From Candidatus Eiseniibacteriota bacterium (GTDB taxonomy: Bacteria > Eisenbacteria > RBG-16-71-46), in contig CAVSAC010000010.1 in assembly GCA_963725865.1 (NCBI GenBank), forward strand, positions 704,001 through 768,000: 64,000 nucleotides of DNA. The letters are read 5' to 3'. A model generated the notes under the pieces. It did not search any database. It was not told the DNA's origin and saw only the letters and a list, made by a program, of their open reading frames with translations. Made by a program: the position numbers and the translations under genes. The stretch's first letter is position 1; each line of letters begins with the position of its first letter. Of this stretch, positions 20,199-37,062 are shown piece after piece.

Positions 20199-20440
20199 GT
20201 GGCCCGCTCCCACCCGACCACGAGATCCTCACGCTCGAGGAGGTCGCGCACTACCTGCGCCTCAAGCCCCAGACCATCTACAAGTGGGCGCAGGAGCGGC
20301 GCATTCCCGCGGTCAAGCTGGGCAAGGAGTGGCGCTTCCGCCGCAGCATCCTCGACCGCTGGCTGGACGAGCAGATGCTGAGCGCGAACTCGGGCTTCAG
20401 TCACCTGCGCGATCGCGAGGGCGGCGAGCGGACGACGTGA
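20195..20440 (+). CDS. Small excisionase/BldC-like (HTH_17) DNA-binding protein
   Basis: ATGA overlap with upstream gene; ILTLEEVAHYLRLKPQTIYKWAQERRIPAVKLGKEWRF. Confidence 0.9.
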   Translation: MSGPLPPDHEILTLEEVAHYLRLKPQTIYKWAQERRIPAVKLGKEWRFRRSILDRWLDEQMLSANSGFSHLRDREGGERTT

Positions 20441-20591
20441 GCGTTCGATGCACGGCCTGAACGCACTCACCGATGCGTCCGGGATCCGGAGCACTTCACT
20501 CGCCGCCATCGACGGCGACACGCCTTGACGCTACATTCCGCGCACAGATCGCGATCAAGACATGCCGAGCCTTGTGCGAGGAGCTGGCGCC

Positions 20592-21140
20592 ATGTTCCGT
20601 CACCGCATCGACGAACACGCCGAGTTGAGACTGTTGACACCCGCTGACGCCCGGGAGCTGTACGAGGTCACGGACGCCCATCGCGCGCACCTGCGGCGCT
20701 GGCTACCCTGGCTCGACGGTACGAGGTCGGCGTCGGACACTGAGGCGTTCATCCAATCCACCTTGCGGCAGTTCGCTGACGGTCAGGGATTCAACGCGGC
20801 GATCCTCATCGACGGGGCCATCGGCGGCGTGGTCGGGCACCATCGCATCTCATAGGCGAACCGCAGCACGTCGCTCGGTTACTGGCTCGCGGCCGCCCAC
20901 GAGGGGCACGGTTTCATGACGCGGGCCTGCCGCGCACTCGTCGGGCACGCGTTCACGGAACTGAACCTGAATCGCGTCGAGATCCGCTGCGCGAGCGACA
21001 ACGCTCGCAGCTGCGCGATCCCGGAACGCCTCTCGTTTCGCCGCGAAGGACTGCTGCGCGAGGCGGAATGGCTCTACGATCGTTTCGTGGACCACGTCGT
21101 CTACGGGCTCATCCGCTCGGAATGGAACGAGCCTCGTTGA
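20592..21140 (+). pseudogene. RimJ/RimL-family GNAT acetyltransferase with one in-frame TAG at 20853-20855
   Basis: Both halves in the same frame: HRIS*ANRSTSLGYWL...GFMTRACRAL...LNRVEIRCASDNARS. The stop falls where Trp (TGG) is expected. Confidence 0.8.
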
Positions 21141-21194
21141 TGCGCCCTGCCGGCTCGAAGTCGCGAGCGAATCGGCCGAATTCCCCGCGGGGAT

Positions 21195-21269
21195 TGGAGG
21201 CGGCACCCGGATTCGAACCGGGGAATAAGGGTTTTGCAGACCCTCGCCTTACCACTTGGCTATGCCGCC
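21195..21269 (-). tRNA. tRNA-Cys (GCA)
   Basis: GGCGGCATAGCCAAGTGGTAAGGCGAGGGTCTGCAAAACCCTTATTCCCCGGTTCGAATCCGGGTGCCGCCTCCA: cloverleaf, TTCGAAT T-loop, encoded CCA. Confidence 0.97.
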
Positions 21270-21497
21270 ACCACTGAGTTGAAGGGCAAGGAGTTATAGC
21301 GCAGCTGCAGGCGAAAATCCAGCCGCGAAGGGCCGAGAAGACCCTTGCCTTGCATCCTCCAATGGCGGCCGGAATCAGCCTCTTCTCAAGTGGATGCCGA
21401 GCCAAGGCGGTCGAGCAACACACCGAACTGCTACATTTCGTCCCGCCCGGCAGCTTGGCGCCAGGCTCAGACGCCCTTACCCACGAGGCAGTTCCCC

Positions 21498-23951: not shown

Positions 23952-24007
23952 GTAACAGGTGAAAGGGCCCCTCGGGCCGACGTCCATCAAGAGCGGCTGC
24001 TGCCCAT

Positions 24008-24382
24008 CTACCTCCTGGCTCGGGCGCCAGCAGTAGCGGCCCGCGGGTGGTCGTCCACCACGCGAAGATGCCCCATGCGGCGCGAATGTGGCGGCCGCGG
24101 CACAATCACGATCTGGACATCCTGACCAAGCGCGTTCAGGAAACGAAAGAGCCGGTCGGAAGAGAAGCCGCGAAGCCGCCCGCGCACCAGATCCGAGATA
24201 CTCGGCTGGTCAATGCTGAGGATTTCGGCTGCCTTCGCTTGTGTCAGCCCTCGCTTCTCGATGATCACCGCGATCCGGGCAGCAATCTCGGACTTGACGA
24301 GCAACTCAGCGCTCTGCGCAAGGCCGATGTCCTCGAAGACATTCCCGCTGCTCTGCTCGACGGGGATCTCGGTCCTGACCAC
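24008..24382 (-). CDS. XRE-family HTH antitoxin (HigA-like)
   Basis: SSGNVFEDIGL...LTQAKAAEILSIDQPSISDLVRGRLRGFSSDRL; directly downstream of the toxin. Start could instead be 24415. Confidence 0.88.
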   Translation of the reverse strand: MVRTEIPVEQSSGNVFEDIGLAQSAELLVKSEIAARIAVIIEKRGLTQAKAAEILSIDQPSISDLVRGRLRGFSSDRLFRFLNALGQDVQIVIVPRPPHSRRMGHLRVVDDHPRAATAGARARR

Positions 24383-24386
24383 TCGC

Positions 24387-24797
24387 CTATTCGCCCGACT
24401 TGCTCCAGCTCGCATGATCCTGCTCGGCTCGTCTGAGCCGCTCCTTGATGAGATCCAGGTCCTTCTGGGGTGTCTTGATGCCTCGCTTCGACTTCTTCTG
24501 AAAGGCGTGAAGCACGTAGATCGCGTCGGCGAACTTCACGGTGTAAACGGCCCGGTAGGTGTCGCTGTCGAAGTCTTCGACGAGTTCGAGTACGCCCGCT
24601 CCACCGAAGCCCCTGAGCGGCTTCGCGTCCTCGTGCTTCCCTCCCAGTTGAGCGATGAAGAGCGCTTGACCGATGACGTCCTTGACCGGCTCGGGAAACT
24701 CCCTCAAGTCCTTCCTCGAAGATCCCACCCAGAAGAGCGGCCTGACTGGCTGCTTCCCGGCTATTATGGCTCTTTGACCATATCGGCGCAAGGGCAT
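24387..24797 (-). CDS. RelE/ParE-superfamily (HigB/Gp49-like) toxin
   Basis: WVGSSRKDL..FP, KPLRGFGGAGVLEL, TYRAVYTVKF..AIYVLHAFQKKS. Start codon uncertain. Confidence 0.88.
   Translation of the reverse strand: MPLRRYGQRAIIAGKQPVRPLFWVGSSRKDLREFPEPVKDVIGQALFIAQLGGKHEDAKPLRGFGGAGVLELVEDFDSDTYRAVYTVKFADAIYVLHAFQKKSKRGIKTPQKDLDLIKERLRRAEQDHASWSKSGE
24763..24791 (-). promoter_or_regulatory. Toxin-antitoxin promoter with overlapping palindromic operator
   Basis: Minus strand TTGCGC-N17-CATAAT, overlapped by TATGG-N8-CCATA (24765-24782). Confidence 0.55.
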
Positions 24798-25118
24798 CCT
24801 TCCTTTAGGCAGATGCGGGCGGGCGCGAACGCTTGACCCATGCCAAGCATAGGCACATTGGCACGCCGACAGCATCTCTCGGCCAGCCTTTTCGAACGCG
24901 CATTGTGCGCGCCCGGGCGACTGCGGCAAGGGCTCAAACGACCTCGCCCTCGCCTGCTACAACTTGCTACGGTCTCAACTTCCTCAAGAGTCCTCTCGTG
25001 TCCTCTCCTGTCCCCTCAAAGGACATCGCCCCAGCGGGGCTAACCCGTTAGGGCGATTGGCTATCGGTTTGGGGCGATATCGCTTGCGTGCTCGGCGTTG
25101 AGAAATATGGCGCGAGAA

Positions 25119-25155
25119 TTTGCAGACCCTCGCCTTACCACTTGGCTATGCCGCC
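25119..25155 (-). repeat. 5' fragment of tRNA-Cys (att site)
   Basis: Exact copy of tRNA nt 1-37, ending at the last base of the anticodon loop. Confidence 0.92.
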
Positions 25156-25314
25156 TCGCGGGGTGATGCGCGGGCGAGGAAGATAGCAGCGCGGGCGCAA
25201 GCGCAGCAACCCGCTCCCATCGACTCGCTGCGGGCCGACTCTCGGCTAGACTGCGCGCGAACGCCGTCGCGCCGCGGGGCGGCCAGAACTGCGATCGCCT
25301 CCGAGGATGGCCCC

Positions 25315-26139
25315 GTGACCGACCTGAATCCCCATCGCAAGCAGATGGCCGACGAGTCCATGGTGCGCACGCTCGCCGCGCAGGCGCGCGCGATCTGGCC
25401 GCAGGAGGTGCCGCTTCTGCGCCACTACGGACTCGGCGACGACATCCGAATCCTCGACGCAGGTTGTGGCACCGGCGAGGTGGCCTCGCGGCTCGCCGAG
25501 CTGTTCCCGCGATCGCGGGTGCTGGGCGTCGACGTTCTCGACCACCACCTCGCGCTCGCACGCGAGCGCTACGCCTCGCTCGCGCCCCGACTCGCGTTCG
25601 AACACCAGAGCATCTTCGAGCTGGCGGCAGCCGACGCGACGTACGACCTCACGGTGTGCCGCCACGTGGTCCATTCGGTGCCCCACGCGGAGCGCGTGTT
25701 CGCCGAGCTGCAGCGCGTGACGCGGCCCGGCGGCTGGCTGCACGTGATCGCGGAGGACTACGGCATGCTCCACTTCCCCGCCGGCGACCGGGACCCGCGC
25801 GAGTTCTGGCACGAGGTGCCGGCCGGCTTCGGGGAGCAGACCGGCACGGACCTGTTCGTGGGGCGCCATGCCTACGGGCACTTCGTGGCGCTCGGGCTCA
25901 CCGACATCACGGTGGACTACGTGATCGTGGACACGGTGCGGGTGCCGCGCGAGACGTTCGCGAGCATCCTCGAGGCGTGGCGCGACGGCTACGTCGCGCC
26001 GATCGCCGAGACCACCCGCTTCACGCACGCGGAGGCCGCGGCCTACTTCGAGCGGATGATCGCAGACGTCCGCGATCCGCGGCGTTACGCGGTGTGGATG
26101 GTGCCGGTGATCGCGGGACGCGTGCCGCAGGCCGGCTGA
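25315..26139 (+). CDS. Class I SAM-dependent methyltransferase
   Basis: ILDAGCGTG, VLGVD, YDLTVCRHV, RVTRPGGWL; GAGG RBS before GTG. Confidence 0.88.
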   Translation: MTDLNPHRKQMADESMVRTLAAQARAIWPQEVPLLRHYGLGDDIRILDAGCGTGEVASRLAELFPRSRVLGVDVLDHHLALARERYASLAPRLAFEHQSIFELAAADATYDLTVCRHVVHSVPHAERVFAELQRVTRPGGWLHVIAEDYGMLHFPAGDRDPREFWHEVPAGFGEQTGTDLFVGRHAYGHFVALGLTDITVDYVIVDTVRVPRETFASILEAWRDGYVAPIAETTRFTHAEAAAYFERMIADVRDPRRYAVWMVPVIAGRVPQAG

Positions 26140-26284: not shown

Positions 26285-29200
26285 CTACTGCGCCAACACC
26301 AGCCGCCGCGTCTCCCGTCGATCGGGCGTGTCCAGGCGCAGGAAGTAGAGCCCCGCGGGCGCGTGCCGGCCGGAGTCGTCGGCGCCACGCCACTCGAACG
26401 GGTATTCACCCGCCTCGAGCACACCGTTCTGCAGCATGGCCACCCGGCGACCGGCGATATCGCTCACTGTCAGTCGCACCGATTGGACGTGGGAGACCGC
26501 CAGCGTGAACCGCACCGTGCCGGTCGCGGGATTCGGGAACGGCGCGCGGCTGAACCCGGTCACCCGATGGACGATGGGCGGCGCCGGATCGAGCGGCGGC
26601 ACGTCCAGCACCCGGCCTTGCGTCACCTCGAGCACCCACACGTCGCCGAGCCGGCCGGCGGCGCCGAGGCCGCCGAAGACCACCATGCGCGCACCCGCCT
26701 GGACGGCGGTGTGACGCGAACGAGCCGCCGGCGGACCGCTGGTGGCGACGGGACGGCCCAGCTCGGCGAGCCGGCCAGGCCGTTCGCGCCCGCCACGGTG
26801 GCGATCGCCGCGCTCGGCGTGCCGGCGATCTCACCGCCGTAGACGATCAGATCGTTCGTCGTCGCGCGATACGCGGCGCTCGAGGCGCGCGTCGCGAGTG
26901 GAGTGCCGCTGGTGGTCGGCTGCGACCACACGGGCGTGCCGACGAGTCCGTTCGCGTGCGAGAGCGTCCACAGGTCACCGGTCGGATCCGCGCACGGTGC
27001 CGCTCCGCCCATCAGGATCATCACGTTGTTCGTGGCGTCGTACGCGGCGCGCTGACCCATCCTGGCGGACGGCGGCGTGCCACTGGGGGCCAGCGCGGAC
27101 CACGCCGCGGTCGCGACGTTGTCGGCGTTCAGCATCACCCACGCGTCGTTCGCCGCACTGCCGCAGGTTCCCGGCGCGGCGCTGCCGCCGAACACGGTCA
27201 TCCGGTGAGTGGCCGGGTCGTACACCGCGCTGGCGCCGCTGCGAGCGCCCGGACCGGCGCCGGGCGACAGCACGCTCCACGCGGGCGTGCCCCCGAGACC
27301 GTTGGCGTTCGACAGCACCCACGCGTCGCCCAGCGCGTTGGCGGGCGCGGCGCCGTCATCGCCGCCGAAGACGATCATGCGGTTGCTCGCCGGGTCGTAG
27401 ACCGCGGTGTGGTTCTGACGGGCGGCGGGCGACGTCCCGGTCGGACTGAGCTGCGTCCACGCCGGCGAGCCGCCCTGACCATCGGCGTGGGTCAGCACCC
27501 AGACGTCCGCCAGCATCCCGGCGTTGCCGCGGCCGCCGAACACGATCATGCGGTCGTTGGTCTCGTCGAGCACCGCGGTGTGACCGTCGCGGTCCATCGC
27601 AACGGGCATCGACGGCAGCAGGTGCACCCACGTCATCGACACCGCGACCAGCGACACGCCGGTCGCGCTGTAGCGCGGCTCGAGCGAGATGCCGTTCCCG
27701 AGGTCGAGGCCGGTGAAGTGGAGCAGGCCCGAGACCGAGCCGCCGGTGACCACCTGGAAGCTCTGGCCGACCGCCGGAACGAAACCGTTCGATCAGCGCC
27801 ACCGCCACCGTGCCGTCGAGCGTGACCGCGCCGGTCACCGCGAGCTGGTCGTAGCCCGTGCCCGGCAGTCCGCCGCCGATCTCGATCGCGACCGAGCTGG
27901 TCGGGCTCATCGGGCAGGGCCCGGTCACGTGGAAGACGCCCGGCGAGGCGCCGGGAGCGATCGCGCCCTGGTCGCTGAACGTCACCGCGACGGGATGACG
28001 AGCGTCCCGGCGCCCGCGAGCGTTCCGGTCGGTGCAGTTCGTGAACGCGCCGGCGCTGGGCGTGAGCGAGCGGGTCGCGGCGATCGTGATGGTGCCGGAG
28101 TTGGTGAAGCTCGGCGTGGTGCCCGACTGCGTCACGGCCAGATCGCCGCCGGTGACGTTGATCGAGCCGCTGTTGGTGTGCTGTGCCGAGGCCTTCGCGA
28201 GCGTGGACGCCAGTCCGATGTCCAGCGTGCCCTGGTTGTCGAGCACCAGCCCCAGCGTGCGCGTTCCGCCGCCCGCTCCCGCCAGCGTCGCGATCGAGCG
28301 ACCCGGCGCGTTCGTCAGCGTGCCGGCCGTGACGTTCAGCGTCGCCCCCCAGCTGATCGTCGTGTTGGTCAGCTCGATGGTCCCGTTGTTCGTGAACCCG
28401 TTCGCCACCGTCAGCGTGGCGGTGCCGTTCGAACCATTCCCCGATATCCGCAGCGTGGAGCCCGCGGCGATGGTCAGCGCTCCGTTCTGGTTGCTGGTGC
28501 CGAGCCACACCAGCGTGCCGTTGTTGGTCAGCGACGCGTTCACCGTGCACGCCGAGAGCGAAGGAATGGCGCCGACGCTCACGGTCAGCGCGCCGGGGCC
28601 ATTGATCGTGCAATTCGTGGCGCTGAACCCCAGCGTCGAGAGGGTGAGCGGGACGCCCAGATTCACCGTCGCGTTGCTGGTGGTCCACGCCCCGCCGCCG
28701 GTGATCGTTCCGGCATTCAGGTTGAAGGTCCCATTCGTGACGATGAGCGTGCGCGAGGCCGGCACCGTGACGCTCCCGGTGGTGGTGAAGCTCGGCAGGG
28801 TTCCGCTCTGCGTGATCGTCAGGTCGCCGCCGCTCAGCGTGATCGAGCCGCTGTGGCTGTGCTGCGCCGAGGGCTTCGCGAGCGTGGTCGCCACCCCGAT
28901 GTCCAGCGTGCCCTGGTTGTCGAGCGTCAGCCCCAGCGTGCGCGCCCCCCCGCCCGCTCCCGCCAGCGTCGCGATCGAGCGCCCCGGCGCGTTCGTCAGC
29001 GTGCCGGCCGTGACGTTCAGCGTCGCCCCCCAGCTGAGCGTCGTGTTGGTCAGCTCGATGGTCCCGTTGTTGGTGAAGCCGTTCGCCACCGTCAGCGTGG
29101 CGGTGCCGTTCGAACCATTCCCCGATATCCGCAGCGTGGAGCCCGCGCCGGTGGTCAGCGCGCCGTTCTGGTTGCTGGTGCCGAGCCACACCAGCGTGCC

Positions 29201-30949
29201 GTTGTTGGTCAGCGGCGCATTCACGGTGGTGGCCGCGAACGTCTGCGACTGACCGGCGTCCACCGTCAGCAGCCCGGGGCCGTTGAGGGTCGAGGCCGAG
29301 GGCGTGAACAGGAGCGACGTCAGCGTGAACGGCACCGCGAAGTTCACGGTCACGTTGCTGGTGGTCCACGCCCCGCCGCCGGTGATCGTCCCGGCATTCA
29401 GGTTGAAGGTCCCATTCGTGACGGTGAGCGTGCGCGAGGCCGGCACCGTGATGCTCCCGGTGGTGGTGAAGCTCGGCGTGGTTCCGCTCTGGGTGATCGC
29501 CAGGTCGCCGCCCGTGAGGTTGATCGAGCCGCTGCTGGTGTGCACCGCCGAGGGCTTCGCGAGCGTGGTCGCCACCCCGATGTCCAGCGTGCCCTGGTTG
29601 TCGAGCGTCAGCCCCAGCGTGCGCGCCCCCCCGCCCGCTCCCGCCAGCGTCGCGATCGAGCGCCCCGGCGCGTTCGTCAGCGTGCCGGCCGTGACGTTCA
29701 GCGCCACCCCCCAGCTGAGCGTCGTGTTGGTCAGCTCGATGGTCCCGTTGTTGGTGAAGCCGTTCGCCACCGTCAGCGTGGCGGTGCCGTTCGAACCATT
29801 CCCCGATATCCGCAGCGTGGAGCCCGCGCCGGTGGTCAGCGCGCCGTTCTGGTTGCTGGTGCCGAGCCACACCAGCGTGCCGTTGTTGGTCAGCGGCGCA
29901 TTCACCGTGGTGGCCGCGAACGCCTGCGACTGACCGGCGTCCACCGTCAGCAGCCCGGGGCCGTTGAGGGTCGAGGCCGAGGGCGTGAACAGGAGCGACG
30001 TCAGCGTGAACGGCACCGCGAAGTTCACGGTCACGTTGCTGGTGGTCCACGCCCCGCCGCCGGTGATCGTCCCGGCATTCAGGTTGAAGGTCCCATTCGT
30101 GACGGTGAGCGTGCGCGAGGCCGGCACCGTGATGCTCCCGGTGGTGGTGAAGCTCGGCGTGGTTCCGCTCTGGGTGATCGCCAGGTCGCCGCCCGTGAGG
30201 TTGATCGAGCCGCTGCTGGTGTGCACCGCCGAGGGCTTCGCGAGCGTGGTCGCCACCCCGATGTCCAGCGTGCCCTGGTTGTCGAGCGTCAGCCCCAGCG
30301 TGCGCGCCCCCCCGCCCGCTCCCGCCAGCGTCGCGATCGAGCGCCCCGGCGCGTTCGTCAGCGTGCCGGCCGTGACGTTCAGCGCCACCCCCCAGCTGGC
30401 CACCGTGTTGGTCAGCTCGATGGTCCCGTTGTTCGTGAACCCGTTCGCCACCGTCAGTGTGGCGGTGCCGTTCGTACCGTTTCCGGACACCCGGATCAGC
30501 GACGTGGCGGCGGTCGTCAGTGGGTTCGAGACGGTGGAGCTCCCCAGCGCCGTGAGGCTGCCCGCCATCGCCAGCGAGCCGGCTCCGGCAAGAGTGGCGC
30601 CCGCCAGGCGCAGCGCGCCATTCGCGCCGACCGAGGAGGCCGCGGCGAGCGTGAGCGTGTGATTCCCGAAATCGAGCGTCTGGGTCCCCGATGCCCCGCC
30701 GAGTGCCAGCGAGTTGACCGACGGGTTCACATCGAGCGTCACCGTGTACGTGCCGGCGAGCGCGATCACTGCGTCGTCGGCGGCACCCGGCACCTGCGCG
30801 GGGGACCAGTTGGCCGCGGTGTTCCAGTTGCCGCCGGCGGCGTTGTTCCAGGTGATCGTGGCCGCGCCGGCGACGGACGCCACGCCGAACGACAACACGA
30901 TGAGGGCGGCCAGGGCGAAGGGCGAGAACGAGGGCGGGAAGACGCGCAT
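26285..30949 (-). CDS. Large secreted adhesin-like protein (G/T/N-rich repeats, Kelch-like propeller, FlgD/T9SS-like tail); frameshifted as assembled
   Basis: Signal peptide then ATITWNNAAGGNWNTAANW; 227-aa repeats; GYDQLAVTG; Kelch-like HTAVYD..NRMIVFGG; tail FPNP...GLYFLRL. Frame changes near 28030, 27990, 27790 and 26745. Confidence 0.75.
28100..30500 (-). repeat. Intragenic tandem repeat, 681-bp unit, about 3.5 copies
   Basis: Anchor CGATCGAGCG recurs at 28291, 28972, 29653 and 30334; the central copies are nearly identical at DNA level. Confidence 0.92.
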
Positions 30950-31074
30950 GAGAGGTGCTCCGTGGCAGGGGTCCGCCGCGGCGAACTCGGGCGAGCTCGG
31001 GCCGCTATGGAGGGATAGACGCTCGAACGGCCCAGAAATCACACGCGGCTCGCGGTCGGGGATCGGCCCGGCGC

Positions 31075-32691
31075 TCAGAACCGGCTCAACACCCGCAACT
31101 CGGCCCCCTCGAACGCCTGCACCTCGTAGCACGTCCCGGCCGTGCAGGCGAGGCCGCCGCGGCGACGGCCGAAGAACAGAATCGCCTCGTGGCCGGGGCC
31201 GAGTCGCGCGTCGAGCACCGCCCCCACCAGGTGGATCGGCCGGTTTCCGGGTACCGCCCGCGAGAGCTCGAGGGGGTCGGTGGTGCGCGTCCACGTCACC
31301 GCGGCGCTGCCGAAGTCGGCGCGCGCCACGGTGCCGGCCAGGTAGAGATCCTCGAACGCCTCGGGAGCGCCCGCGGTCTCGCGTCGCGCGGTCTGGCGCT
31401 GCATGTCCAGCGTGCCCGACCACGCCCGCAGCACGCGCACCGTCGCGGCGATCCCGACGGTGCGGCGATCGGAGATCGAGATCAACTCGTCCCAGCTGCG
31501 GTCGTAGAACGCGGTCGCCTCCCAGCGCTCGGCCCGCCGCGGCGCCGCGCGCCACTCCACGAATCGCTCCTCGAAGCGCCGGGCGCCGGCGCCGTCCGAG
31601 CGGCTCCAGTTGGTGGTGACCGCGGCCCAGTCGGACGGCGTGTAGGACCCCTCGAACTGGAACCCCTGCTCGCGGTCGGCGACCAGCACGTGAGTGCTGC
31701 GATTGAGCAGGACCTGCGCGTGCTCGCGCACCAGCGACGGGGGATCGTTCACGCCCAGCCGGAACCGGGAGTAGTCCTTCCACTCGACCGCAAACGTGAC
31801 CGGACCGGTGATCAGGTTGGCGCTCGTATAGAGGGCGTGCGGTGTGCGCTCCCGCGTGCTGAAGCTCCACCAGTCCCCGAACGAGCGATCGGCCTGCGCG
31901 TACTCGGCGTAGAGCGGCAGCGCCACCGACCGGATGCCCACCAGGCGCATCGCATCCAGGTCCACGAATCCGGTGCCCAGCTCCTGCTGGCCGAGCCCCG
32001 CCTTCATACGCAGGTAGGCCGCGCCCACGCGCGCGCCGCGCGCCACCATGGTCGCGAGCTGCGCGCCGTTTACCTGTCCCGCGTGGCGCACGAACCCCAG
32101 CTCCTCGCCCGCGAGCGAGGACTCGCCGCCGTTGGGCGCCCCGCTCAGGAGCGTCGCGCTCACGGGTCCAAGCGTGGCCTCGGCGAGCACGCCGTCGACG
32201 TCGCGCGAGGGTCCGAAGCGCGAACGCGGGAAGCGCTGGTCGAGCACCACGCCGTTCAGCTCGAAGGCGCGCTGGATGAGGCCGCGGCCGAGGATGCTGT
32301 AGAAGTTCCCGACCCGCACGCGGTAGCGATCGTCGTTCCAGTCGAGGAAGCGCTCGGTGAGGCCCTCGTAGGGGTACTGGTCCTCGCTGTTGCGATCGGT
32401 CTCGTAGCGCAGACCGGCGATCCCCCCGGGAAACGCGTACATCAGGTTCACCTGGTCGTACGCGTCCAGCCGGTTCGCAGGCCCCCGGCCGGCGTAGGAC
32501 TTTGGATAGTTCCCGGACTGGCCCTCGAACAGGTTGGTGCCGGAGAGCTGGGCGCGGGCGAGCGCGGGCGCCAGCGACAGCAGGCACACGGCGCCGATGA
32601 AGGCCCGCGCGCCGACCCGCGCGGCGCCGGTCGCGAGCGCGGCGCGGCGCCCGATGCGCACCCCGCGCCGGCCCCGCTCAGCGCGTGCCAT
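31075..32691 (-). CDS. Outer-membrane beta-barrel protein, DUF6029-like, with C-terminal CxxxxC
   Basis: Signal peptide; RVGNFYSILGRGLI, EWKDY and NDPPSL motifs; amphipathic strands; ends GRRRGGLACTAGTCYEV...LSRF with terminal Phe. Confidence 0.75.
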   Translation of the reverse strand: MARAERGRRGVRIGRRAALATGAARVGARAFIGAVCLLSLAPALARAQLSGTNLFEGQSGNYPKSYAGRGPANRLDAYDQVNLMYAFPGGIAGLRYETDRNSEDQYPYEGLTERFLDWNDDRYRVRVGNFYSILGRGLIQRAFELNGVVLDQRFPRSRFGPSRDVDGVLAEATLGPVSATLLSGAPNGGESSLAGEELGFVRHAGQVNGAQLATMVARGARVGAAYLRMKAGLGQQELGTGFVDLDAMRLVGIRSVALPLYAEYAQADRSFGDWWSFSTRERTPHALYTSANLITGPVTFAVEWKDYSRFRLGVNDPPSLVREHAQVLLNRSTHVLVADREQGFQFEGSYTPSDWAAVTTNWSRSDGAGARRFEERFVEWRAAPRRAERWEATAFYDRSWDELISISDRRTVGIAATVRVLRAWSGTLDMQRQTARRETAGAPEAFEDLYLAGTVARADFGSAAVTWTRTTDPLELSRAVPGNRPIHLVGAVLDARLGPGHEAILFFGRRRGGLACTAGTCYEVQAFEGAELRVLSRF

Positions 32692-33262
32692 GCGCCCCCG
32701 CCGTGTCGACGGCCGCGCGACCGTCGGGCCGCGCGCTCGAGTCGGCGCCGCTTCCCGTCGCGAGCAGCGTCACGATCCGCTGCTCCAGCTCCTCGCCCTC
32801 GCCGGGGCGGTACCCCAGGCGCACCGATGCGATGCTGCCGTCGCGGTCGATCAGCACGGTGGTGGGCATCGCCACCACCTGATAGAGGTGGCGCAACCGC
32901 TCGTCCTGATCGATGACGATCGGATAGGTGAGGCCGAGACGTGCCGCGAGCGGACGCACCCTGGTGTAGTTGCGCGGTCCGTCGACTGAGATCCCGATCA
33001 CCGTGAACCCGCGCGGGCCGTACGCCCTGTGCCAGCGCTCGAGCTCGGGCGCCGCATCCAGACAGGGCTTGCACCAGGTGGCCCAGAAGTCGAGCAGGAC
33101 GGGGCCGCGGCGCAGCAGATCGTCGAGCTCCAGCGTCCGTCCGAGGACGTCGTTCACCTTGAAGCGCGGCGCCGGGGCAGACCGAGCGGGGAACGCCGCC
33201 CGGGCGACGCCGGCGCCGACGCACGCAGCGATCGTCAGCGCGAGGATCGCGCGGGTCAGCAT
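32678..33262 (-). CDS. TlpA-family periplasmic thiol-disulfide oxidoreductase
   Basis: Signal peptide; LLDFWATWCKPC; cis-Pro motif AMPTTVLIDRDG; overlaps the start of the downstream gene. Confidence 0.92.
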   Translation of the reverse strand: MLTRAILALTIAACVGAGVARAAFPARSAPAPRFKVNDVLGRTLELDDLLRRGPVLLDFWATWCKPCLDAAPELERWHRAYGPRGFTVIGISVDGPRNYTRVRPLAARLGLTYPIVIDQDERLRHLYQVVAMPTTVLIDRDGSIASVRLGYRPGEGEELEQRIVTLLATGSGADSSARPDGRAAVDTAGAHGTR

Positions 33263-33282
33263 CGTGCCGGCGCGACCGGCCG

Positions 33283-34137
33283 TCACCGCAGGATCACCAC
33301 GCGCAGGGAGCACCGCACCCCACCCACGTCGGAGCGGAGCAGATAGAGCCCGGGTCGCACCCGCGCGCCCTGCTCGTCGCGGCCGTCCCACGTGAGGCGC
33401 TTGGTCCCCGGCGGGATCTCGCCCTGCCACGGCGTGGCGATCCGCCGCCCGGCCAGGTCGTGCGCCGTCACCGTCGCGGGCCGAGCCGTGCGCTCCGGAT
33501 TCGACAGCTCGAGCGTGGTCTCGCCATGGAACGGGTTGGGGGCCGCGCGCAGCGAGTAACCGCTGGCTCCGGGTCCGGAGCCGACATCGAGGGGCGACGT
33601 CACCAGCGAGTCGATGCAGCCGCGTAGCTCGCCCACGTGATAGCGATTCCCGTAAGGCCACAGCAGGTAGGCGCTGTATCGCACGATCCCCTGCTTGCTG
33701 ATCACCGCGTAGCTGTCGCGGTCGCCGTAGGGGATGAACAGGTTCTCGTTCCCGGAGCCAAGGGCGCCGTTCAGAAGCAGCGGGAACGGAACGCCGGTCG
33801 CGGTCCTGAACGAGGTGAGGCTGGGAGCGTTTCCATTGAACAGGTCCGGCCCGAGCGCCTGCACCTGCCCGGGATAGTTCGTCTCGTAGTACTGCCAGAT
33901 CTCGCTGACGACCGACGGACCGTCGGCGATGCACTCGGGTCACGAGTACCCGAGCAGGAACAGGAAGACGACCTTGCCACGGTACTGCGAAAGCGTCTGC
34001 GAATTGCCCTCGAGGTCGACCTTGTGGAAGTCGGGCGCCACGTCCCCGGGATGCAGGACCGCGCGGGCCGGCAGCGGCGAAACGAGACATGCGAGCAGCA
34101 GGAGCGCCGCCCACGGCGGGACGGTTCGTCGGACCAT
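33283..34137 (-). CDS. Secreted thioredoxin-fold (redoxin) selenoprotein, UxxC, with FlgD/T9SS-like tail
   Basis: ORFs 33940-34137 and 33283-33864 are in one frame joined by TGA 33942-33940: GDVAPDF...YRGKVVFLFLLGYS-U-PEC. GAGG RBS, signal peptide, SECIS-like hairpin. Confidence 0.85.
33912..33926 (-). promoter_or_regulatory. Putative bacterial SECIS hairpin
   Basis: CCGAC-GGTCC-GTCGG begins after a 13-nt spacer 3' of the UGA; GU in the apical loop. Confidence 0.65.
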
Positions 34138-34282
34138 GGCAACCTCACGCGGAGACGCGGCCGGCCGGGCTTCTGGCCGGCAGCATACCTCCGTGAGTCG
34201 CGCCCGAGTCAGCGATGATCGCGGGCGGCCCGCGGTGCTGAACTCCGTGCCGGGATCCGCTCGCGGATCGCGGGTCCCCCGC

Positions 34283-34316
34283 GGCGGGGAGTCCGACCTC
34301 GCTCGGACTCCCCGCC
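34283..34316 (-). terminator. Strong hairpin just after the beta-propeller gene
   Basis: Perfect 14-bp inverted repeat GGCGGGGAGTCCGA-N6-TCGGACTCCCCGCC; no U-tract. Confidence 0.55.
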
Positions 34317-34327
34317 TCGCTCCCGGC

Positions 34328-36769
34328 TCAGCGCACGACCATGAGCTTGCGCGTCGCGACCGCGGCCCCGCTGGTCAGGTGGGCGAAGTAGAGCCCCGCC
34401 TTGAGCGACGCGGTCGGCAGCGTGACCGCGTGCGGGCCGGCGGTCATCGGCGCGCGGTCGAGCAGCGTCGTGACGCGGCGACCGGCGGCATCGAACACCG
34501 CCAGCGTCACCGGACCGGTGGCCGGCAACGCGAACTGCAGCTCGGTGCGGCCGCGTGCCGGGTTCGGGTAGTTGCTCAGCTGCAACCGGTGGGCGATCGA
34601 GCCCAGCGGCGCGTCCACGGTGCCCGGCACCGAGAGGAACGCCGCCATGCCCTGGGTCCACAGCCCGTGCGAGGTGCTGAAGTTGCCGCCGACGTACAAC
34701 GTGGAGGCGGTCCGCTCCATGCAGTAGACGGCGCTGTTCTGGTTGGGATCCCAGGTGAAGTCCGCGGCGCCCGAGCCGTCGATCGACGCCAGGTAATTGC
34801 GGGTCTGGCCGCCGACGAACGTGAACGCGCCGCCCGCGTAGACGGTGGAGCCGCTCACCTTCAGCACGTACACGGTGCTGTTCGCGTTCGGATCCCACGC
34901 CGTGGCGAGGCCGGTGGTGGCATCGAGCGCCGCGATGCGGTTGCGCGTCTGACCGCCGACGGAGGTGAACACACCGCCGGCGTAGACGGTGTTCCCGTCG
35001 CCCGACAAGTCGACGCTGTACACGACGTTATTCGCGTTCGGATTCCAGGTCGACGCCAGTCCGCTGCTGACGTCGAGCGCCGCGAGCCCGCTGCGCACCT
35101 GTCCGCCGATGTTGTTGAACGAACCACCCGCGTAGAGCGTCGATCCGCGCTTCGCGAGCGTGAGCACCTCGTTGTTCGAGTTCGGGTTCCAAGTGGTCGC
35201 GGCGCTGTTCGCGAGGTTCAACTCGGCGATCCGGTTGCGGGCCTGTCCGCCAATGTTCGTGAAGAGCCCGCCCACGTAGAGCGTGCTGCCGTTCAGCAGC
35301 ATCGTGTCGATCAGGTTGTTCGCGTTCGGATTCCACGGCGAGGCGAGCCCGGTGGTGGCGTCGAGCGCCGCGATTCGGTTGCGCACCTGCCCGCCGATGT
35401 TCGTGAACGGTCCACCCGCGTACACGGTGTTCCCATCGACCACGATGTCGTTGACCTGGTTGTTCGAGTTGGGATCCCACTCGGTGACGGCGCCGGTCAC
35501 GGCGTTCAACGCGGCGATGCGATTGCGCACCCGCGCGCAGATGATCGTGAACGCGCCGCCCGCGTAGAGCGTGGTGCCCTCGCGCGCGAGCGCGTAGGTG
35601 AAGTCGTTCGCGAGCGGGTTCCACGTGGTCGCAGCGCCGGTCGTCACGTCCAGCCCGGCGCAGTACGCGCGCGCCTGCGCCCCGATGTTCGTGAAGCCGC
35701 CGCCGGCGTAGAGCGTGGTGCCGTCCAGCACCAGCGCGTAGACCGCGCCGTTGGAATTCGGGTTCCAGGTCGACGCCAGTCCGGTCGCGGGATCCAGCGA
35801 AGCGATGCGATTGCGCACCTGGCCGCCGATGCTCGTGAACAGCCCGCCCACGAACACGGTGCCGCTGTTGAGCACGATCGCGCGGACCTGGTTGTTGGCG
35901 TTGGGATCCCACGCCGTCGCTGCGCCGGTCGCCAGGTCGATCTCGGCGATCCGGTTGCGCGTCTGCCCGCCGATGTTCGTGAACGCGCCGCCCACGTACA
36001 GCGTGCCGCCGTTGAGCGCCAGGGCGTACACGTCGAGGTTCGAGTTCGGATTCCACGCGGTGGCGGCACCGGTGCCGACGTCGACCGCCGCGATGCGCGG
36101 GCGGTTCTGGCCGCCGATCGTGGTGAAGACCCCTCCGACGTAAAGCGTCCCGCCGTCCAGAGCCAGTGCGTCCACGTTGCTGTTCGCGTTCGGGTTCCAC
36201 GCGGTGGCGAGCCCGGTGGCAGCGTCGATCGCCGCGATGTGATTGCGCGTCTGCCCGCCGACGAACGTGAATGCACCGCCGACGTAGACCGTGCTCCCGC
36301 TGACCGCGAGGGCGTAGACCGCGGAGTTCGCGTTGGGCTTCCAGGGCGCGATGGTGCCGTCGGCGAGCACGTGGACGAGATTCGTGCAGGCGACGCTGCC
36401 GATCGTGGTGAAGGTCCCCCCCAGGAACCAGCCGCCGAACCCATCGGGCGCGACCGCGTACAGCGTGCCGTTGACGCGCGGGAACGGCGACCGCGGCAGG
36501 AAGGTGGCCAGGTCGATCGCCGCGCCTCCGCCGGTGGTCGGGTATACCTGGGTGAACGTCCCCCCGATGTAGATGGTGTTGCCGACCCGCGTGAACGCGG
36601 TCACGGCGTTGTTCGCCATCCAGAGGGTGGAGTCCACCTGCTGCGCGCGCGCGCCATCCGGCCGTGCGCCGAGCCACGCGAGCGCGACGAGGCCGGCGGC
36701 GAGCGCGAGGAGCGGGGCGCGACGGGCGCGGCCACGACGGTGCGATGCGGTCGGAGAGAGTGCTGCCAT
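34328..36769 (-). CDS. Secreted beta-propeller repeat protein with T9SS-like tail
   Basis: Signal peptide; about 12 repeats of about 52 aa (WNPNAN..V.ALA..G.TLY.GG.FT.IGGQ.RNRIAALD..TG); tail NYPNP...GLYFAHL. Confidence 0.88.
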   Translation of the reverse strand: MAALSPTASHRRGRARRAPLLALAAGLVALAWLGARPDGARAQQVDSTLWMANNAVTAFTRVGNTIYIGGTFTQVYPTTGGGAAIDLATFLPRSPFPRVNGTLYAVAPDGFGGWFLGGTFTTIGSVACTNLVHVLADGTIAPWKPNANSAVYALAVSGSTVYVGGAFTFVGGQTRNHIAAIDAATGLATAWNPNANSNVDALALDGGTLYVGGVFTTIGGQNRPRIAAVDVGTGAATAWNPNSNLDVYALALNGGTLYVGGAFTNIGGQTRNRIAEIDLATGAATAWDPNANNQVRAIVLNSGTVFVGGLFTSIGGQVRNRIASLDPATGLASTWNPNSNGAVYALVLDGTTLYAGGGFTNIGAQARAYCAGLDVTTGAATTWNPLANDFTYALAREGTTLYAGGAFTIICARVRNRIAALNAVTGAVTEWDPNSNNQVNDIVVDGNTVYAGGPFTNIGGQVRNRIAALDATTGLASPWNPNANNLIDTMLLNGSTLYVGGLFTNIGGQARNRIAELNLANSAATTWNPNSNNEVLTLAKRGSTLYAGGSFNNIGGQVRSGLAALDVSSGLASTWNPNANNVVYSVDLSGDGNTVYAGGVFTSVGGQTRNRIAALDATTGLATAWDPNANSTVYVLKVSGSTVYAGGAFTFVGGQTRNYLASIDGSGAADFTWDPNQNSAVYCMERTASTLYVGGNFSTSHGLWTQGMAAFLSVPGTVDAPLGSIAHRLQLSNYPNPARGRTELQFALPATGPVTLAVFDAAGRRVTTLLDRAPMTAGPHAVTLPTASLKAGLYFAHLTSGAAVATRKLMVVR

Positions 36770-37062
36770 CGGAGCCTCCGCTCGAGGTCGGTGTGGGGTG
36801 TGCGGCCCGCGCGGCTTCCCGCCCGCGGCGCCACCCGGCCCGGAACGGGGCGGGAGCGCCGGAAATGGAAGCGACTCATCCCCCATTGCGCAGGAGCGAG
36901 CCCGCAGCCGTCATCGAAGCTCGAACGGGCGTCCGCGCGGGGCTGCGCGATCGGGGCGCGATTCCCTCGCAAGTCCGTGTCGGTCGTGGCCGATAACGTG
37001 GATGGACCTCCGGCAACGCCTGCGGGAAGTCCACCCAATAGCCCCGGACGAGCGCATACGCC

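Follow-up and report, generated by a model that had tools for sequence, protein, structure and literature searches.

Three adjacent minus-strand genes in the window, the stretch of 64,000 nucleotides from a Candidatus Eiseniibacteriota genome that was analysed, encode a selenoprotein predicted to be sorted to the cell surface, a TlpA-like thiol-disulfide reductase and an outer-membrane barrel of the DUF6029 family, and the trio is kept together across several phyla of the FCB group. The cassette may constitute a single envelope redox module, a thiol analogue of the porin-cytochrome complexes that would keep a redoxin at the cell surface supplied with reducing equivalents, although this reading is tentative and is given somewhat less than an even chance. 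It draws on the conservation of the gene pair encoding TlpA and the barrel, on an almost invariant pair of cysteines near the end of the barrel and on a predicted complex in which TlpA occupies the barrel lumen.

Organization and Conservation of the Cassette

The cassette spans positions 31075-34137 of the window, and all of the features described for it in the initial annotation are present where they had been placed (Table 1). The tight linkage of the three genes is evident in the sequence, with a spacing of 20 nt between the selenoprotein and TlpA genes and an overlap of 14 nt between the TlpA and barrel genes, as are the motifs that had been read from their products, namely a UxxC followed by a sorting tail, the WCKPC of the TlpA and a barrel C-terminus of the form RRGGLACTAGTC...F. 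Signal peptides were called by eye from hydrophobic N-termini ending in ARA followed by V, A or Q, and in the AF2 models the N-terminal region is helical at residues 8-19 (redoxin) and 25-40 (barrel).

Table 1. Features of the cassette, with positions in the window
Feature	Position	Strand	Remarks
Selenoprotein gene	33283..34137	-	284 codons, stop codon 33283-33285; signal peptide (by eye), ResA/TlpA-like domain, T9SS-type sorting domain
Thioredoxin-fold (ResA-like) domain, residues 30-178	33604..34050	-	AF2 secondary structure; Foldseek
In-frame TGA read as selenocysteine, codon 66	33940..33942	-	gives GYS-U-P-E-C; U66-P-E-C69
SECIS-like hairpin	33910..33928	-	8-bp stem, GUC apical loop, start 12 nt after UGA
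C-terminal beta-sandwich sorting domain (probable), residues 195-284	33286..33555	-	PNPF and G-x-Y motifs; FlgD_ig
TlpA/ResA-like thiol-disulfide reductase gene, periplasmic	32678..33262	-	194 aa; Pfam AhpC-TSA 82.8 bits
TlpA active-site codons, C64-K-P-C67	33062..33073	-	from sequence; residues 61-65 in predicted barrel interface
DUF6029 outer-membrane beta-barrel gene	31075..32691	-	538 aa; ~24 strands; PF19494 46 bits
Long conserved barrel loop, residues 131-163 (YSILGRGLIQRAFE...)	32203..32301	-	predicted to fold into lumen
Barrel loop, residues 309-339	31675..31767	-	most conserved motif of the family, NDPPSLVREH..LLNR.TH
C516-T-A-G-T-C521 codons	31129..31146	-	last extracellular loop; cysteines on opposite hairpin arms, 513-517 and 520-524

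A TlpA homologue lies within the fetched DNA at 64 of 65 barrel loci, directly upstream and on the same strand at 53 of them, and a second redoxin is also present at 56 of the 65. This first set is skewed towards the cysteine motif since it was retrieved partly by the pattern ACTAGTCY. In an unbiased set of 30 loci, which was retrieved with PF19494 alone and from another phylum, TlpA adjoins the barrel at 26, and at three of the four loci without TlpA the DNA upstream of the barrel match is 800 nt or less (54, 12 and 800 nt). Co-occurrence of barrel homologues with thioredoxin-fold genes, on which the initial annotation had staked its proposal, is thus found in both sets. The link between TlpA and barrel outlasts rearrangement, as co-directional, divergent and redoxin-downstream gene orders are all seen, and Calditrichota loci without the ResA-like redoxin have an Omp28-family CxxC lipoprotein and a T9SS-tailed Omp28 protein instead. 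The arrangement is seen again in dozens of genomes belonging to several phyla and is thus not a product of chance. The module is carried by 64 of the 172 genomes of the window's own phylum, a patchy distribution that marks it as accessory.

A Pfam scan of 79 flanking ORFs at 10 loci found no conserved genes beyond the trio. One of the flanking ORFs, in locus L060, matched glycosyltransferase families. One cassette locus is from a MAG labelled Gemmatimonas phototrophica, which is a cultured species. A description of the cassette was not found in the literature.

The Selenoprotein

The conclusion that the first gene encodes a genuine selenoprotein is well supported by several features of the nucleotide sequence. 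The position aligned with the in-frame TGA is TGA in 46 homologues and a Cys codon (TGC or TGT) in 18, and coding similarity continues after the UGA. For the SECIS-like hairpin, 93.2% of the cells are paired in 37 homologous Sec genes and changes on both sides occur in five of eight pairs, a level of covariation reached by none of 500 shuffles in a test that is tilted in favour of the hairpin because the structure was derived from those same coding sequences. The genome also encodes the Sec machinery, with matches to selA, selB, selD and tRNA-Sec at 542, 341, 358 and 69 bits, respectively, that are all above the cut-offs. The alignment of TGA with Cys codons, the compensatory changes in the hairpin and the Sec genes together bear out the earlier identification of a selenoprotein with a UxxC motif.

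From its sequence, the protein is a thiol-disulfide oxidoreductase of the ResA/TlpA type whose active site is U-x-x-C. Residues 30-155 match the Pfam families AhpC-TSA (34.5 bits) and Redoxin (28.7 bits), and the top Foldseek matches of the AF2 model (pLDDT 92.6) are 2ls5 and ResA, with target-normalised TM scores of 0.82-0.86 for ResA chains versus 0.66-0.76 for Prx chains. The peroxidatic Cys motif of peroxiredoxins is P-x-x-x-T/S-x-x-C. Assignment of the protein as a peroxiredoxin (AhpC/BCP) was rejected, as the sequence L-L-G-Y-S-U-P-E-C lacks a Thr or Ser three residues before U and ResA chains give the better fit. The Pfam family and the UxxC motif are shared with the Prx-like thiol:disulfide oxidoreductase selenoproteins (PF00578, UxxC), a class listed in a 2026 review of prokaryotic selenoproteomes (PMC13188914). 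In the available portion of that review the words "secreted" and "periplasm" do not occur, while "outer membrane" appears once, for an MtrB/PioB-type barrel selenoprotein, and "TlpA" once, for a UGC-containing TlpA-family selenoprotein. None of the NCBIfam selenoprotein models matches the window selenoprotein.

Residues 203-266 match FlgD_ig (31.8 bits versus a cut-off of 27), and the protein also matches the C-terminal domain of PorU. TIGR04183 (Por_Secre_tail) has no match in the window selenoprotein at E <= 0.001 and is matched by 37 of 44 homologues. T9SS genes are present in the genome, as indicated by matches to PorU (442 bits, cut-off 420) and SprA (212.6 bits, cut-off 200; 399 bits after neighbouring same-frame matches are summed). 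The probable T9SS sorting tail points to export of the selenoprotein to the cell surface.

The TlpA-Like Reductase

The second gene product carries the motif FWATWCKPC and matches AhpC-TSA with 82.8 bits and Redoxin with 61.8 bits. It has the traits of TlpA/ResA/CcmG-type proteins, including the thioredoxin fold, a W-C-x-x-C motif, a cis-Pro loop (P133) and an export signal recognized by eye, and it falls below the NCBIfam cut-offs for ResA (95.1 versus 170 bits), TlpA (51 versus 230 bits) and DsbE (36.2 versus 123 bits). The protein belongs to a separate subfamily that is distinguished by DGPRN and GYRPGDE motifs. Residues W60, W63, C64, P66, C67, D94, D118 and P133 are invariant in the alignment of 54 barrel-linked TlpA homologues, and the best solved match to a profile of these proteins is 2m72_A (E 2.1e-36, positions 22-165), an uncharacterised thioredoxin-like protein. 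The genome encodes one CcdA/DsbD membrane protein (DsbD_TM).

In a putative TlpA-barrel-Omp28 trio of Bacteroidota the outer partner is a Cys lipoprotein, whereas here it is a Sec-containing, probable T9SS cargo. No assigned function for the Bacteroidota trio was found in the literature; PG2175, PG2174 and Omp28 are included in vesicle proteome lists in the available parts of two reports (PMC13744359, PMC4335976).

The DUF6029 Barrel and Its Cysteine Pair

A profile search confirmed the assignment of the barrel to DUF6029, which had been raised as a question in the initial annotation, since PF19494 matches with 46 bits against a cut-off of 27, over residues 81-144 only. PF19494 is found in all listed barrel homologues except P0108, which is a 364-residue fragment. 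The AF2 model (pLDDT 86.3, pTM 0.81) has about 24 strands, and the structures that it matches best are two usher pores of 24 strands, FimD (Z 18.9, rmsd 4.7 over 360 residues) and PapC (Z 17.8). The FimD/PapC ushers and the TonB-dependent transporters are 22-24-strand barrels with a lumen filled by a folded domain of ~100-150 residues, and the sequence identity of the window barrel to such plugged large barrels is only 10-12%. In the ushers and TonB-dependent transporters the plug is part of the same chain and lacks a redox role, whereas the predicted plug here is a separate thioredoxin-fold protein.

The only paper found to mention DUF6029 (PMC9603273) reports, in the part available, an HHpred similarity of the family to Wzi-barrel-only homologues near OPX genes, and Wzi (2ynk), representing a type of barrel with 18 strands, does align to the window barrel with a Z of 13.7. 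DUF6029 as a Wzi-like porin that secretes capsule or exopolysaccharide is nevertheless very improbable, as the Wzi alignment spans residues 48-418 only and is outranked by those of the ushers and of many porins, no match named OPX or Wzx/Wzy occurs among the 79 flanking ORFs of the 10 loci, and the conserved partners of the barrel are thiol oxidoreductases.

Two loops of the barrel are strongly conserved. In loop 131-163, residues G135, G137, L138, R141, L145, V148 and R163 are invariant, and the stretch 131-147 forms part of the interface predicted with TlpA. The invariant columns of loop 309-339 are P317, P318, L320, E323, L328, N330, R331, T333 and H334; this loop has low pLDDT when the barrel is folded alone, and it contributes residues 316-319 and 323-325 to the predicted interface.

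The barrel ends in GGLACTAGTCYEVQAFEGAELRVLSRF. The C-x4-C within it is invariant in all 35 aligned homologues, and none of the 27 complete barrels in the set retrieved with the Pfam model alone lacks it, which bears out the proposal that the barrel cysteines are conserved. The wider motif G-x-R-R-x-G-x-x-C-x-x-G-x-C...F, a description made in this analysis and outside the Pfam definition, is found in the window barrel as well as in the same 35 and 27 sequences. A C-x4-C within the last 40 residues is found in 128 of 150 library representatives; of the 22 without it, 21 are missing the C-terminal end of the barrel (fragments or frame-shifted ends). In one complete homologue, P0242, both cysteines are replaced, by Tyr and Phe, and the pair is therefore dispensable for the barrel fold. 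C516 and C521 face each other across a tight beta-hairpin in the AF2 model, a geometry that an ordinary structural disulfide would share, and the hairpin cysteines may be just that.

A Predicted Complex between TlpA and the Barrel

Modelling of the complex, which had been suggested in the initial annotation, placed TlpA inside the barrel with both its active site and the cysteine hairpin in the predicted interface. The ipSAE was 0.88, 0.91 and 0.91 in three runs versus 0.01 for the best of three controls. Among complexes with solved structures 116 of 157 attain that mark, and among mismatched pairs 2 of 215; these calibration counts are only roughly valid here because the prediction was run on alignments made in this analysis. 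The runs share at least 91% of their contacts, and the pLDDT of the partner is at least 80. When the contact list is combined with the AF2 barrel model, the contacts fall on 15 of the 24 strands (always on their periplasmic halves), on 9 of the 11 periplasmic turns and on loop residues 131-147, 316-325 and 516-519; on the TlpA side they include residues 61-65 (A-T-W-C-K). The lumenal position and the periplasm-facing end of the barrel were deduced from the contact list and the usual rules for outer-membrane proteins, and binding of TlpA to the barrel is predicted from one complex prediction. Interface positions of the barrel are more conserved than the remainder (0.69 versus 0.61, p = 0.012), while those of TlpA are no more conserved than the remainder of that protein (0.57 versus 0.54, p = 0.34).

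A pore with a removable occupant could also account for such a complex. The barrel would then be a redox-gated channel for a solute or polymer, with TlpA serving as a plug or setting the disulfide of a gating hairpin and the secreted redoxin acting on the transported substrate outside the cell. The barrel is as large as an usher pore and has a predicted plug-like occupant, its long conserved loops are predicted to fold into the lumen, and a cross-strand disulfide could serve as a switch. This account is rather unlikely, however, as genes for transporters, substrate-binding proteins or polymer synthesis are not conserved next to the cassette at the 10 loci, and in every case a further CxxC/UxxC protein is the third partner, which speaks for a relay more than for a solute pathway.

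Alternatively, the barrel could be a client of the reductase or an anchor for the redoxin. TlpA, and perhaps the redoxin, would form, isomerise or keep reduced the barrel cysteines during assembly, and the predicted complex would be an assembly intermediate; or the barrel would be dedicated, much like PorP/SprF, to anchoring the T9SS-tailed redoxin at the surface or to aiding its export. The strict pairing of TlpA with a barrel that holds an invariant cysteine pair, the location of the hairpin within the predicted interface and the joint loss of both cysteines in P0242, as expected for a disulfide, are consistent with a client. A costly three-gene module would in that case yield just a barrel without a function of its own, and the ~150 contacts predicted on all sides of the lumen suggest a stable fit rather than the transient contact of a chaperone. 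The best matches listed from Foldseek and VIA are ushers, porins and TonB-dependent transporters, with no PorP/SprF-like barrel among the matches listed, although such a list could miss one. Neither form of the idea is judged probable.

A Possible Route for Reducing Equivalents across the Outer Membrane

In the envelope redox module that is tentatively favoured here, the ~150-residue TlpA domain would dock like a plug in that half of the lumen which lies towards the periplasm, its CxxC face being predicted to point upward and to be met by three in-folded extracellular loops that include the invariant C-x4-C hairpin. TlpA would be charged by the inner-membrane CcdA/DsbD protein and, once in the barrel, would supply the surface redoxin with reducing equivalents from across the outer membrane, either by way of the disulfide in the hairpin or by touching the redoxin directly through the pore. 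The redoxin might in turn reduce a substrate outside the cell or at its surface, for example a disulfide, a sulfenic acid or a peroxide. The initial annotation had envisaged a relay from TlpA through the barrel cysteines to an extracellular Sec enzyme, and this idea stands in part, through the conserved cysteines, the co-occurrence with thioredoxins and the predicted position of TlpA inside the barrel. A point against it is that a TlpA seated in the outer membrane would have to be recharged by an inner-membrane protein. The accompanying description of the system as an outer-membrane analogue of DsbD is a loose likeness, and the MtrCAB-type porin-cytochrome complexes offer a better analogy.

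MtrC-MtrA-MtrB of Shewanella are encoded in the order extracellular redox protein, periplasmic redox protein and barrel, and the periplasmic partner is sheathed in the barrel so that electrons can cross. The gene order of the cassette is that of this complex (PDB 6r2q), and MtrB aligns with the model of the window barrel, which has ~24 strands, at a Z of 13.1 over 379 residues, without a sequence relationship. The cassette differs from the porin-cytochrome complexes in that it lacks haems, its would-be redox centres being CxxC, UxxC and C-x4-C. Membership in the MtrAB complexes was rejected and the likeness is one of analogy only, since a CxxCH motif is absent from all three proteins and there is no Pfam or NCBIfam match to MtrB. 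The Caulobacter ScsB-TlpA-PprX pathway offers a second comparison, as TlpA there takes electrons from a DsbD-family protein and reduces a cell-envelope peroxiredoxin, according to the part available of the report (PMC3322552). The known pathways of this type end in the periplasm and lack an outer-membrane protein, whereas the acceptor in the cassette has an apparent T9SS sorting tail and the barrel is an obligatory genomic partner.

A more far-reaching proposal, which must be regarded as doubtful, is that DUF6029 barrels and TlpA form a "porin-thioredoxin" complex in many FCB-group bacteria, among them perhaps Porphyromonas gingivalis. TlpA would sit in the pore, the hairpin disulfide would be the relay, and the terminal reductases would be interchangeable surface CxxC/UxxC proteins (T9SS-tailed ResA-like selenoproteins or Omp28-family proteins). 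Such a complex would be the first known carrier of thiol/disulfide and selenol reducing equivalents across the bacterial outer membrane.

Implications

No thiol-reducing pathway of a Gram-negative bacterium is known to reach beyond the periplasm, and the upkeep of reduced Cys and Sec enzymes that are secreted or at the cell surface therefore calls for an explanation. If the proposal is true, a barrel that houses a thioredoxin-fold protein would provide a mechanism, as the thiol counterpart of extracellular electron transfer by porin-cytochromes. With three genes only, the module lends itself to a direct test of the hypothesis. Three uncharacterised groups would also gain a function if the proposal is true, namely DUF6029, a family of 932 representative clusters, the TlpA subfamily described above and the exported selenoproteins as a family.

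Gene organization

An initial annotation of the window, which has a G+C content of about 72%, proposed that three linked genes encode a redox relay spanning the cell envelope. The arrangement it described, with a short gap followed by an overlap, matches the sequence exactly (see table). The redoxin has a hydrophobic N-terminal signal, the annotated UxxC in the form GYS-U-P-E-C, and Pfam matches to AhpC-TSA/Redoxin at residues 30-155 and to FlgD_ig at residues 203-266, the latter corresponding to the proposed sorting tail. The TlpA has the WCKPC motif that had been noted for it and matches AhpC-TSA (Pfam, 82.8 bits), while falling under the NCBIfam cut-offs of ResA, TlpA and DsbE. The barrel, which was said to end in a cysteine pair, terminates in RRGGLACTAGTCYEVQAFEGAELRVLSRF, and its suspected identity as DUF6029 was borne out by a Pfam match of 46 bits against a cut-off of 27. 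Promoter and terminator scans of positions 30800-34500 of the window found none.

Coordinates of the three-gene unit, the RNA hairpin and the adjoining genes in the window
Feature	Positions	Strand	Remarks
Three genes	34137 to 31075	minus	
Gene 1, redoxin	34137-33283	minus	TGA in frame at codon 66; 284 residues when read through
Gene 2, TlpA/ResA-like	33262-32678	minus	194 residues, FWATWCKPC; 20 nt after gene 1
Gene 3, DUF6029 barrel	32691-31075	minus	538 residues; 14-nt overlap with gene 2
Hairpin 3' of the TGA	33928-33910		CGCCGACG-GUC-CGUCGGUC
Gene directly upstream of the trio	34328-36886	minus	852 aa
Gene directly downstream of the barrel	27356-30990	minus	large secreted protein

The gene directly upstream of the trio encodes repeated 'WNPNANS..VYALA..G.LYVGG.FT.IGGQ.RN.IA' units, which look like those of a beta-propeller, and a tail resembling that of the redoxin, so the trio lies among other likely T9SS cargo genes. 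In the downstream gene a 681-nt (227-aa) unit with many T, G and N residues (TLTVANGFTNNGTIELTN...) occurs four times in tandem, with 83-87% identity between copies, and the gene product looks like a beta-helix adhesin. Tandem Repeats Finder reported no repeats at 27000-31100 because the repeat period exceeds its limit. The G+C content drops to 0.64-0.66 at 20000-26000 compared with 0.70-0.77 in the rest of the window, and this region may be an acquired island.

Selenocysteine in the redoxin

Comparison with related loci indicates that the redoxin is a genuine selenoprotein. When 65 related loci were searched by tblastn with the redoxin domain, the residue facing U66 was a stop codon in 46 cases, each of them TGA, and cysteine (TGC or TGT) in 18; one further row was a cross-match to a TlpA gene. 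Similarity to the redoxin carries on past the TGA. The genome encodes the machinery for selenocysteine insertion, with matches to selA (542 bits), selB (341 bits), selD (358 bits) and tRNA-Sec (69 bits). The tRNA-Sec gene lies about 140 nt from selD, which itself carries an in-frame TGA (G000:C10:237537-238692, minus strand, G000 being the genome of the window). Two more TlpA-like matches with one in-frame TGA each, at G000:C12:1384176-1384628 (minus) and G000:C10:1151332-1151868 (plus), may be further thioredoxin-fold selenoproteins.

A hairpin follows the TGA. Across the 37 of 49 selenocysteine genes that share its register, the other 12 with the hairpin one codon earlier being excluded, 93.2% of the cells are paired and in five of the eight pairs both partners have changed (C-G has become G-C in 16 and 11 sequences, for instance), values to be read with the caveats that the structure was derived from the very sequences tested and that the region is coding. 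None of 500 shuffles equaled the observed covariation, and shifting the partner by 1-3 columns lowered pairing to 23-56%. Given all 49 genes together, RNAalifold predicted no pairs, because the hairpin of the Gemmatimonadota and Latescibacterota genes is shifted by one codon toward the TGA. Folded alone, the 71-nt stretch that surrounds the TGA of the window gave no signal (z = 0.18), and the selenocysteine genes as a group had lower folding z-scores than the cysteine genes (median -0.62 versus 0.06; Mann-Whitney p = 0.018).

The AF2 model of the redoxin (pLDDT 92.6) consists of a thioredoxin fold at residues 30-178 and a seven-strand beta-sandwich at 195-282. Foldseek places 2ls5 (from Bacteroides thetaiotaomicron, a putative disulfide isomerase) and ResA at the top, with peroxiredoxins ranking below, and HBP35 (5y1a) was absent both from phmmer matches at E <= 0.01 and from the Foldseek matches listed. 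NF045500, the Omp28-related selenoprotein family, was considered for the redoxin and rejected, as it has no match to the redoxin family of the window. A 'Prx-like thiol:disulfide oxidoreductase, PF00578, UxxC' is listed among predicted selenoproteins in an excerpt of PMC13188914, and the enzyme alone is therefore a new member of a class already described. Two or three tailed-redoxin paralogues occur in tandem upstream of TlpA in six Eisenbacteria loci (L046, L047, L050, L055, L035 and L032), and L035 and L055 mix selenocysteine and cysteine versions.

Export of the redoxin

The tail identifies the redoxin as a probable cargo of the T9SS. The T9SS sorting domain TIGR04183 is matched by 37 of 44 aligned redoxin homologues, and since the tail of the window's protein reaches only the FlgD_ig model, its assignment rests partly on these relatives. 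Within the tail P200, P202, G230 and G263 never vary and N201 and Y265 rarely do, forming PNP and G-x-Y motifs. Besides PorU (442 bits) and SprA, some 50 further proteins with a tail like the PorU CTD are encoded in the genome. The match to SprA, a component of the T9SS translocon, contains one in-frame TGA (G000:C10:1012947-1014479, minus strand), which may encode a selenocysteine, result from a sequencing error or mark a disrupted gene.

Conservation of the three-gene unit

The barrel family comprises 932 representative clusters at E <= 0.001. Sixty-five loci were collected with the barrel alignment, carrying labels that include Eisenbacteria, Latescibacterota, Gemmatimonadota, Marinimicrobia, Krumholzibacteriia, Calditrichota and KSB1; this set is biased toward the cysteine motif because ACTAGTCY was one of the two search patterns. 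The initial annotation made its proposal depend on co-occurrence with thioredoxin-fold genes, and such genes were found almost throughout. A TlpA homologue is present in 64 of the 65 loci, the single exception having no DNA upstream of the barrel. In 53 loci it is the immediate upstream neighbour of the barrel gene and shares its strand; in the other 11 it is divergent, lies downstream or is separated by more than 400 nt. Tailed redoxins, in one to three copies, occur in 56 loci. A set free of the motif bias was drawn from a PF19494 search of 167 genomes of another phylum (that of locus L058), of which 39 matched, and 30 loci were taken with 1.5-kb flanks. TlpA abuts the barrel in 26 of these; three of the remaining four have only 54, 12 and 800 nt of upstream DNA, and L109 has 1.6 kb without TlpA. 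The unpublished genome G163 (loci L110 and L119) supplies one row to each of the alignments A2 (the 54 barrel-linked TlpAs), A3, A4 and A5 and is counted in the linkage, z-score and residue-pairing tallies; none of the conclusions rests solely on it or on G235, the other unpublished genome. Judged by these comparisons the trio is a conserved unit.

The Calditrichota loci have no ResA-like redoxin. Directly upstream of TlpA they encode a PEGA and Omp28-family protein that contains the motif CVPC and starts with a signal of the lipoprotein type; NF045500 gives a sub-threshold match (41.8 bits against 200) to one such Omp28 lipoprotein. One gene beyond, a T9SS-tailed protein with an Omp28 domain (93.5 bits) is encoded. 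The third partner is thus interchangeable, yet always an exported CxxC or UxxC protein.

Outside the trio the flanks vary among loci. MsrA is encoded no further than about 3 kb away in two loci; near one locus there are genes for both glutathione peroxidase and rubrerythrin, and near another there is one for a di-haem peroxidase. A role of the barrel as a polysaccharide porin, hinted at in an excerpt of PMC9603273, is highly improbable: a Pfam scan of 79 flanking ORFs gave no match named OPX (polysaccharide export) or Wzx/Wzy, and glycosyltransferase families were matched by one flanking ORF, in L060. Wzi is among the structural matches to the barrel, as a partial one (Z 13.7).

The barrel and its cysteine pair

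In the AF2 model of the barrel (pLDDT 86.3, pTM 0.81), 24 long strands are connected by short turns at one end and by longer loops at the opposite end. Among solved structures it is closest to two usher pores of 24 strands, FimD (Z 18.9, with 360 residues aligned at an rmsd of 4.7) and PapC (Z 17.8), and lower-ranking matches include porins, TonB-dependent transporters and MtrB (Z 13.1). C516 and C521 face each other on a hairpin (513-517/520-524) between strand 23 and the last strand. In outer membrane proteins both termini and the short turns are usually periplasmic and the last residue is aromatic; by these rules the cysteine hairpin would be the last extracellular loop.

Conservation of the two cysteines, on which the proposed relay was made to depend, holds with one exception. 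A C-x2-G-x-C ... F ending terminates all 27 complete barrels of the unbiased set, and C-x4-C lies within the last 40 residues of 128 of 150 library representatives. Of the other 22, 21 lack the C-terminal end of the barrel (fragments or frame-shifted ends), and P0242 is a complete barrel in which Tyr and Phe replace both cysteines. No relatives of P0242 were found in a metagenome scan, and its closest match in 167 genomes of the nearest phylum was no better than 34% identical. It is possible that the barrel is a redox-gated channel, a reading we consider rather improbable.

Predicted TlpA-barrel complex

The best solved match to the profile of the barrel-linked TlpAs is 2m72_A (E 2.1e-36). LTIAAC in the window's TlpA is not kept among homologues and was rejected as a lipobox. 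Eisenbacteria TlpAs end in a low-complexity tail (positions 32681-32770 in the window), often A/P-D-S-T/A ... R/P as in ...PADSTR and ...GDSAR, which is missing in other phyla. Fusions of TlpA to the barrel suggested by a script in L070, L071 and L100 were not accepted, since the translation of L071 has a stop between the genes and the barrel frame of L100 begins after the TlpA gene; P0256 is likewise not a fusion.

Modeling of the barrel with its partners had been recommended in the initial annotation, and for TlpA it yielded a confidently predicted complex. Barrel residues 45-538 (35-row alignment) folded with TlpA residues 24-194 (54-row alignment) gave ipSAE values of 0.88, 0.91 and 0.91 with about 150 contacts, compared with 0.00, 0.01 and 0.00 for three controls; of 157 solved complexes, 116 reach the ipSAE mark, as do 2 of 215 mismatched pairs, counts that are only rough here because custom alignments were used. 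At least 91% of contacts agree between runs, and partner pLDDT is at least 80. To our knowledge, no solved complex has a thioredoxin-fold protein enclosed by a barrel, and a memorized pass therefore seems unlikely.

Combining the contact list with the strand map of the barrel AF2 model places the TlpA contacts on 15 of 24 strands, always in the half toward the short turns, and on 9 of 11 short turns. They run around the whole circumference, which implies that TlpA occupies the lumen, having entered via the periplasmic mouth. The long loops touched are 131-147, 316-325 (the NDPPSLVREH motif, poorly ordered in the barrel-only model) and 516-519, the C-T-A-G of the cysteine hairpin. Among the TlpA positions in contact are A61-T-W-C64-K65, V93-DGPRN (a motif of the subfamily), residues 128-131 beside the cis-Pro, and 146-158 (the GYRPGE motif). 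TlpA is therefore predicted to dock in the lumen with its active-site face toward in-folded loops. With about 150 residues inside a barrel of 24 strands, the TlpA domain is similar in size to the plug of a 22-strand TonB-dependent transporter.

Interface positions of the barrel are somewhat more conserved than the rest (0.69 versus 0.61, p = 0.012), and those of TlpA are no more conserved than the rest (0.57 versus 0.54, p = 0.34). Among TlpA-barrel pairs of loci L017-L116, the residue that follows the first cysteine of TlpA varies in step with the sequence of the hairpin: C-K/R/H/E/Q-P-C accompanies C-T/S/N-x-G-x-C in 56 pairs, C-L/V/I-P-C accompanies C-I/V/A-G-G-V/I-C in 13, and 8 are mixed. 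Both positions lie in the predicted interface, and the pattern may reflect merely one or two deep splits in the tree. The barrel could also be a client or anchor, which is improbable in our judgment.

Relation to known systems and proposed function

The order of the trio (outer protein, periplasmic protein, barrel) corresponds to mtrC-mtrA-mtrB of the Mtr system, in which the periplasmic partner is sheathed in the barrel, as TlpA is predicted to be. DUF6029 is mentioned in an excerpt of PMC9603273, in another context, and nowhere else among the matches listed. By title and abstract, the matches listed include nothing related that joins selenoproteins to the T9SS and describe no module of TlpA with an outer membrane barrel, and for PG2173-PG2175 the excerpts of PMC13744359 and PMC4335976 hold vesicle proteome entries only. 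For the periplasmic steps of the chain, ScsB-TlpA-PprX of Caulobacter is a precedent (PMC3322552).

Sequence comparison thus delineates a conserved three-gene unit in which a periplasmic CxxC reductase is combined with a large barrel bearing a conserved cysteine pair and with an exported UxxC or CxxC enzyme. The genome has a single CcdA/DsbD-type protein, which would charge TlpA; from TlpA, reducing equivalents would then cross the barrel and reach the surface enzyme, by way of the hairpin disulfide or by direct contact. Passage specifically through C516 and C521 is doubtful. The broader reading, a redox module feeding a surface enzyme through the barrel, is proposed tentatively, at slightly less than even confidence. 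The barrel family is single-copy in the window's genome and occurs in 64 of 172 genomes of its phylum, a tally that counts the unpublished genome G235, and in 43 of 121 high-quality ones; the module is therefore an accessory one.
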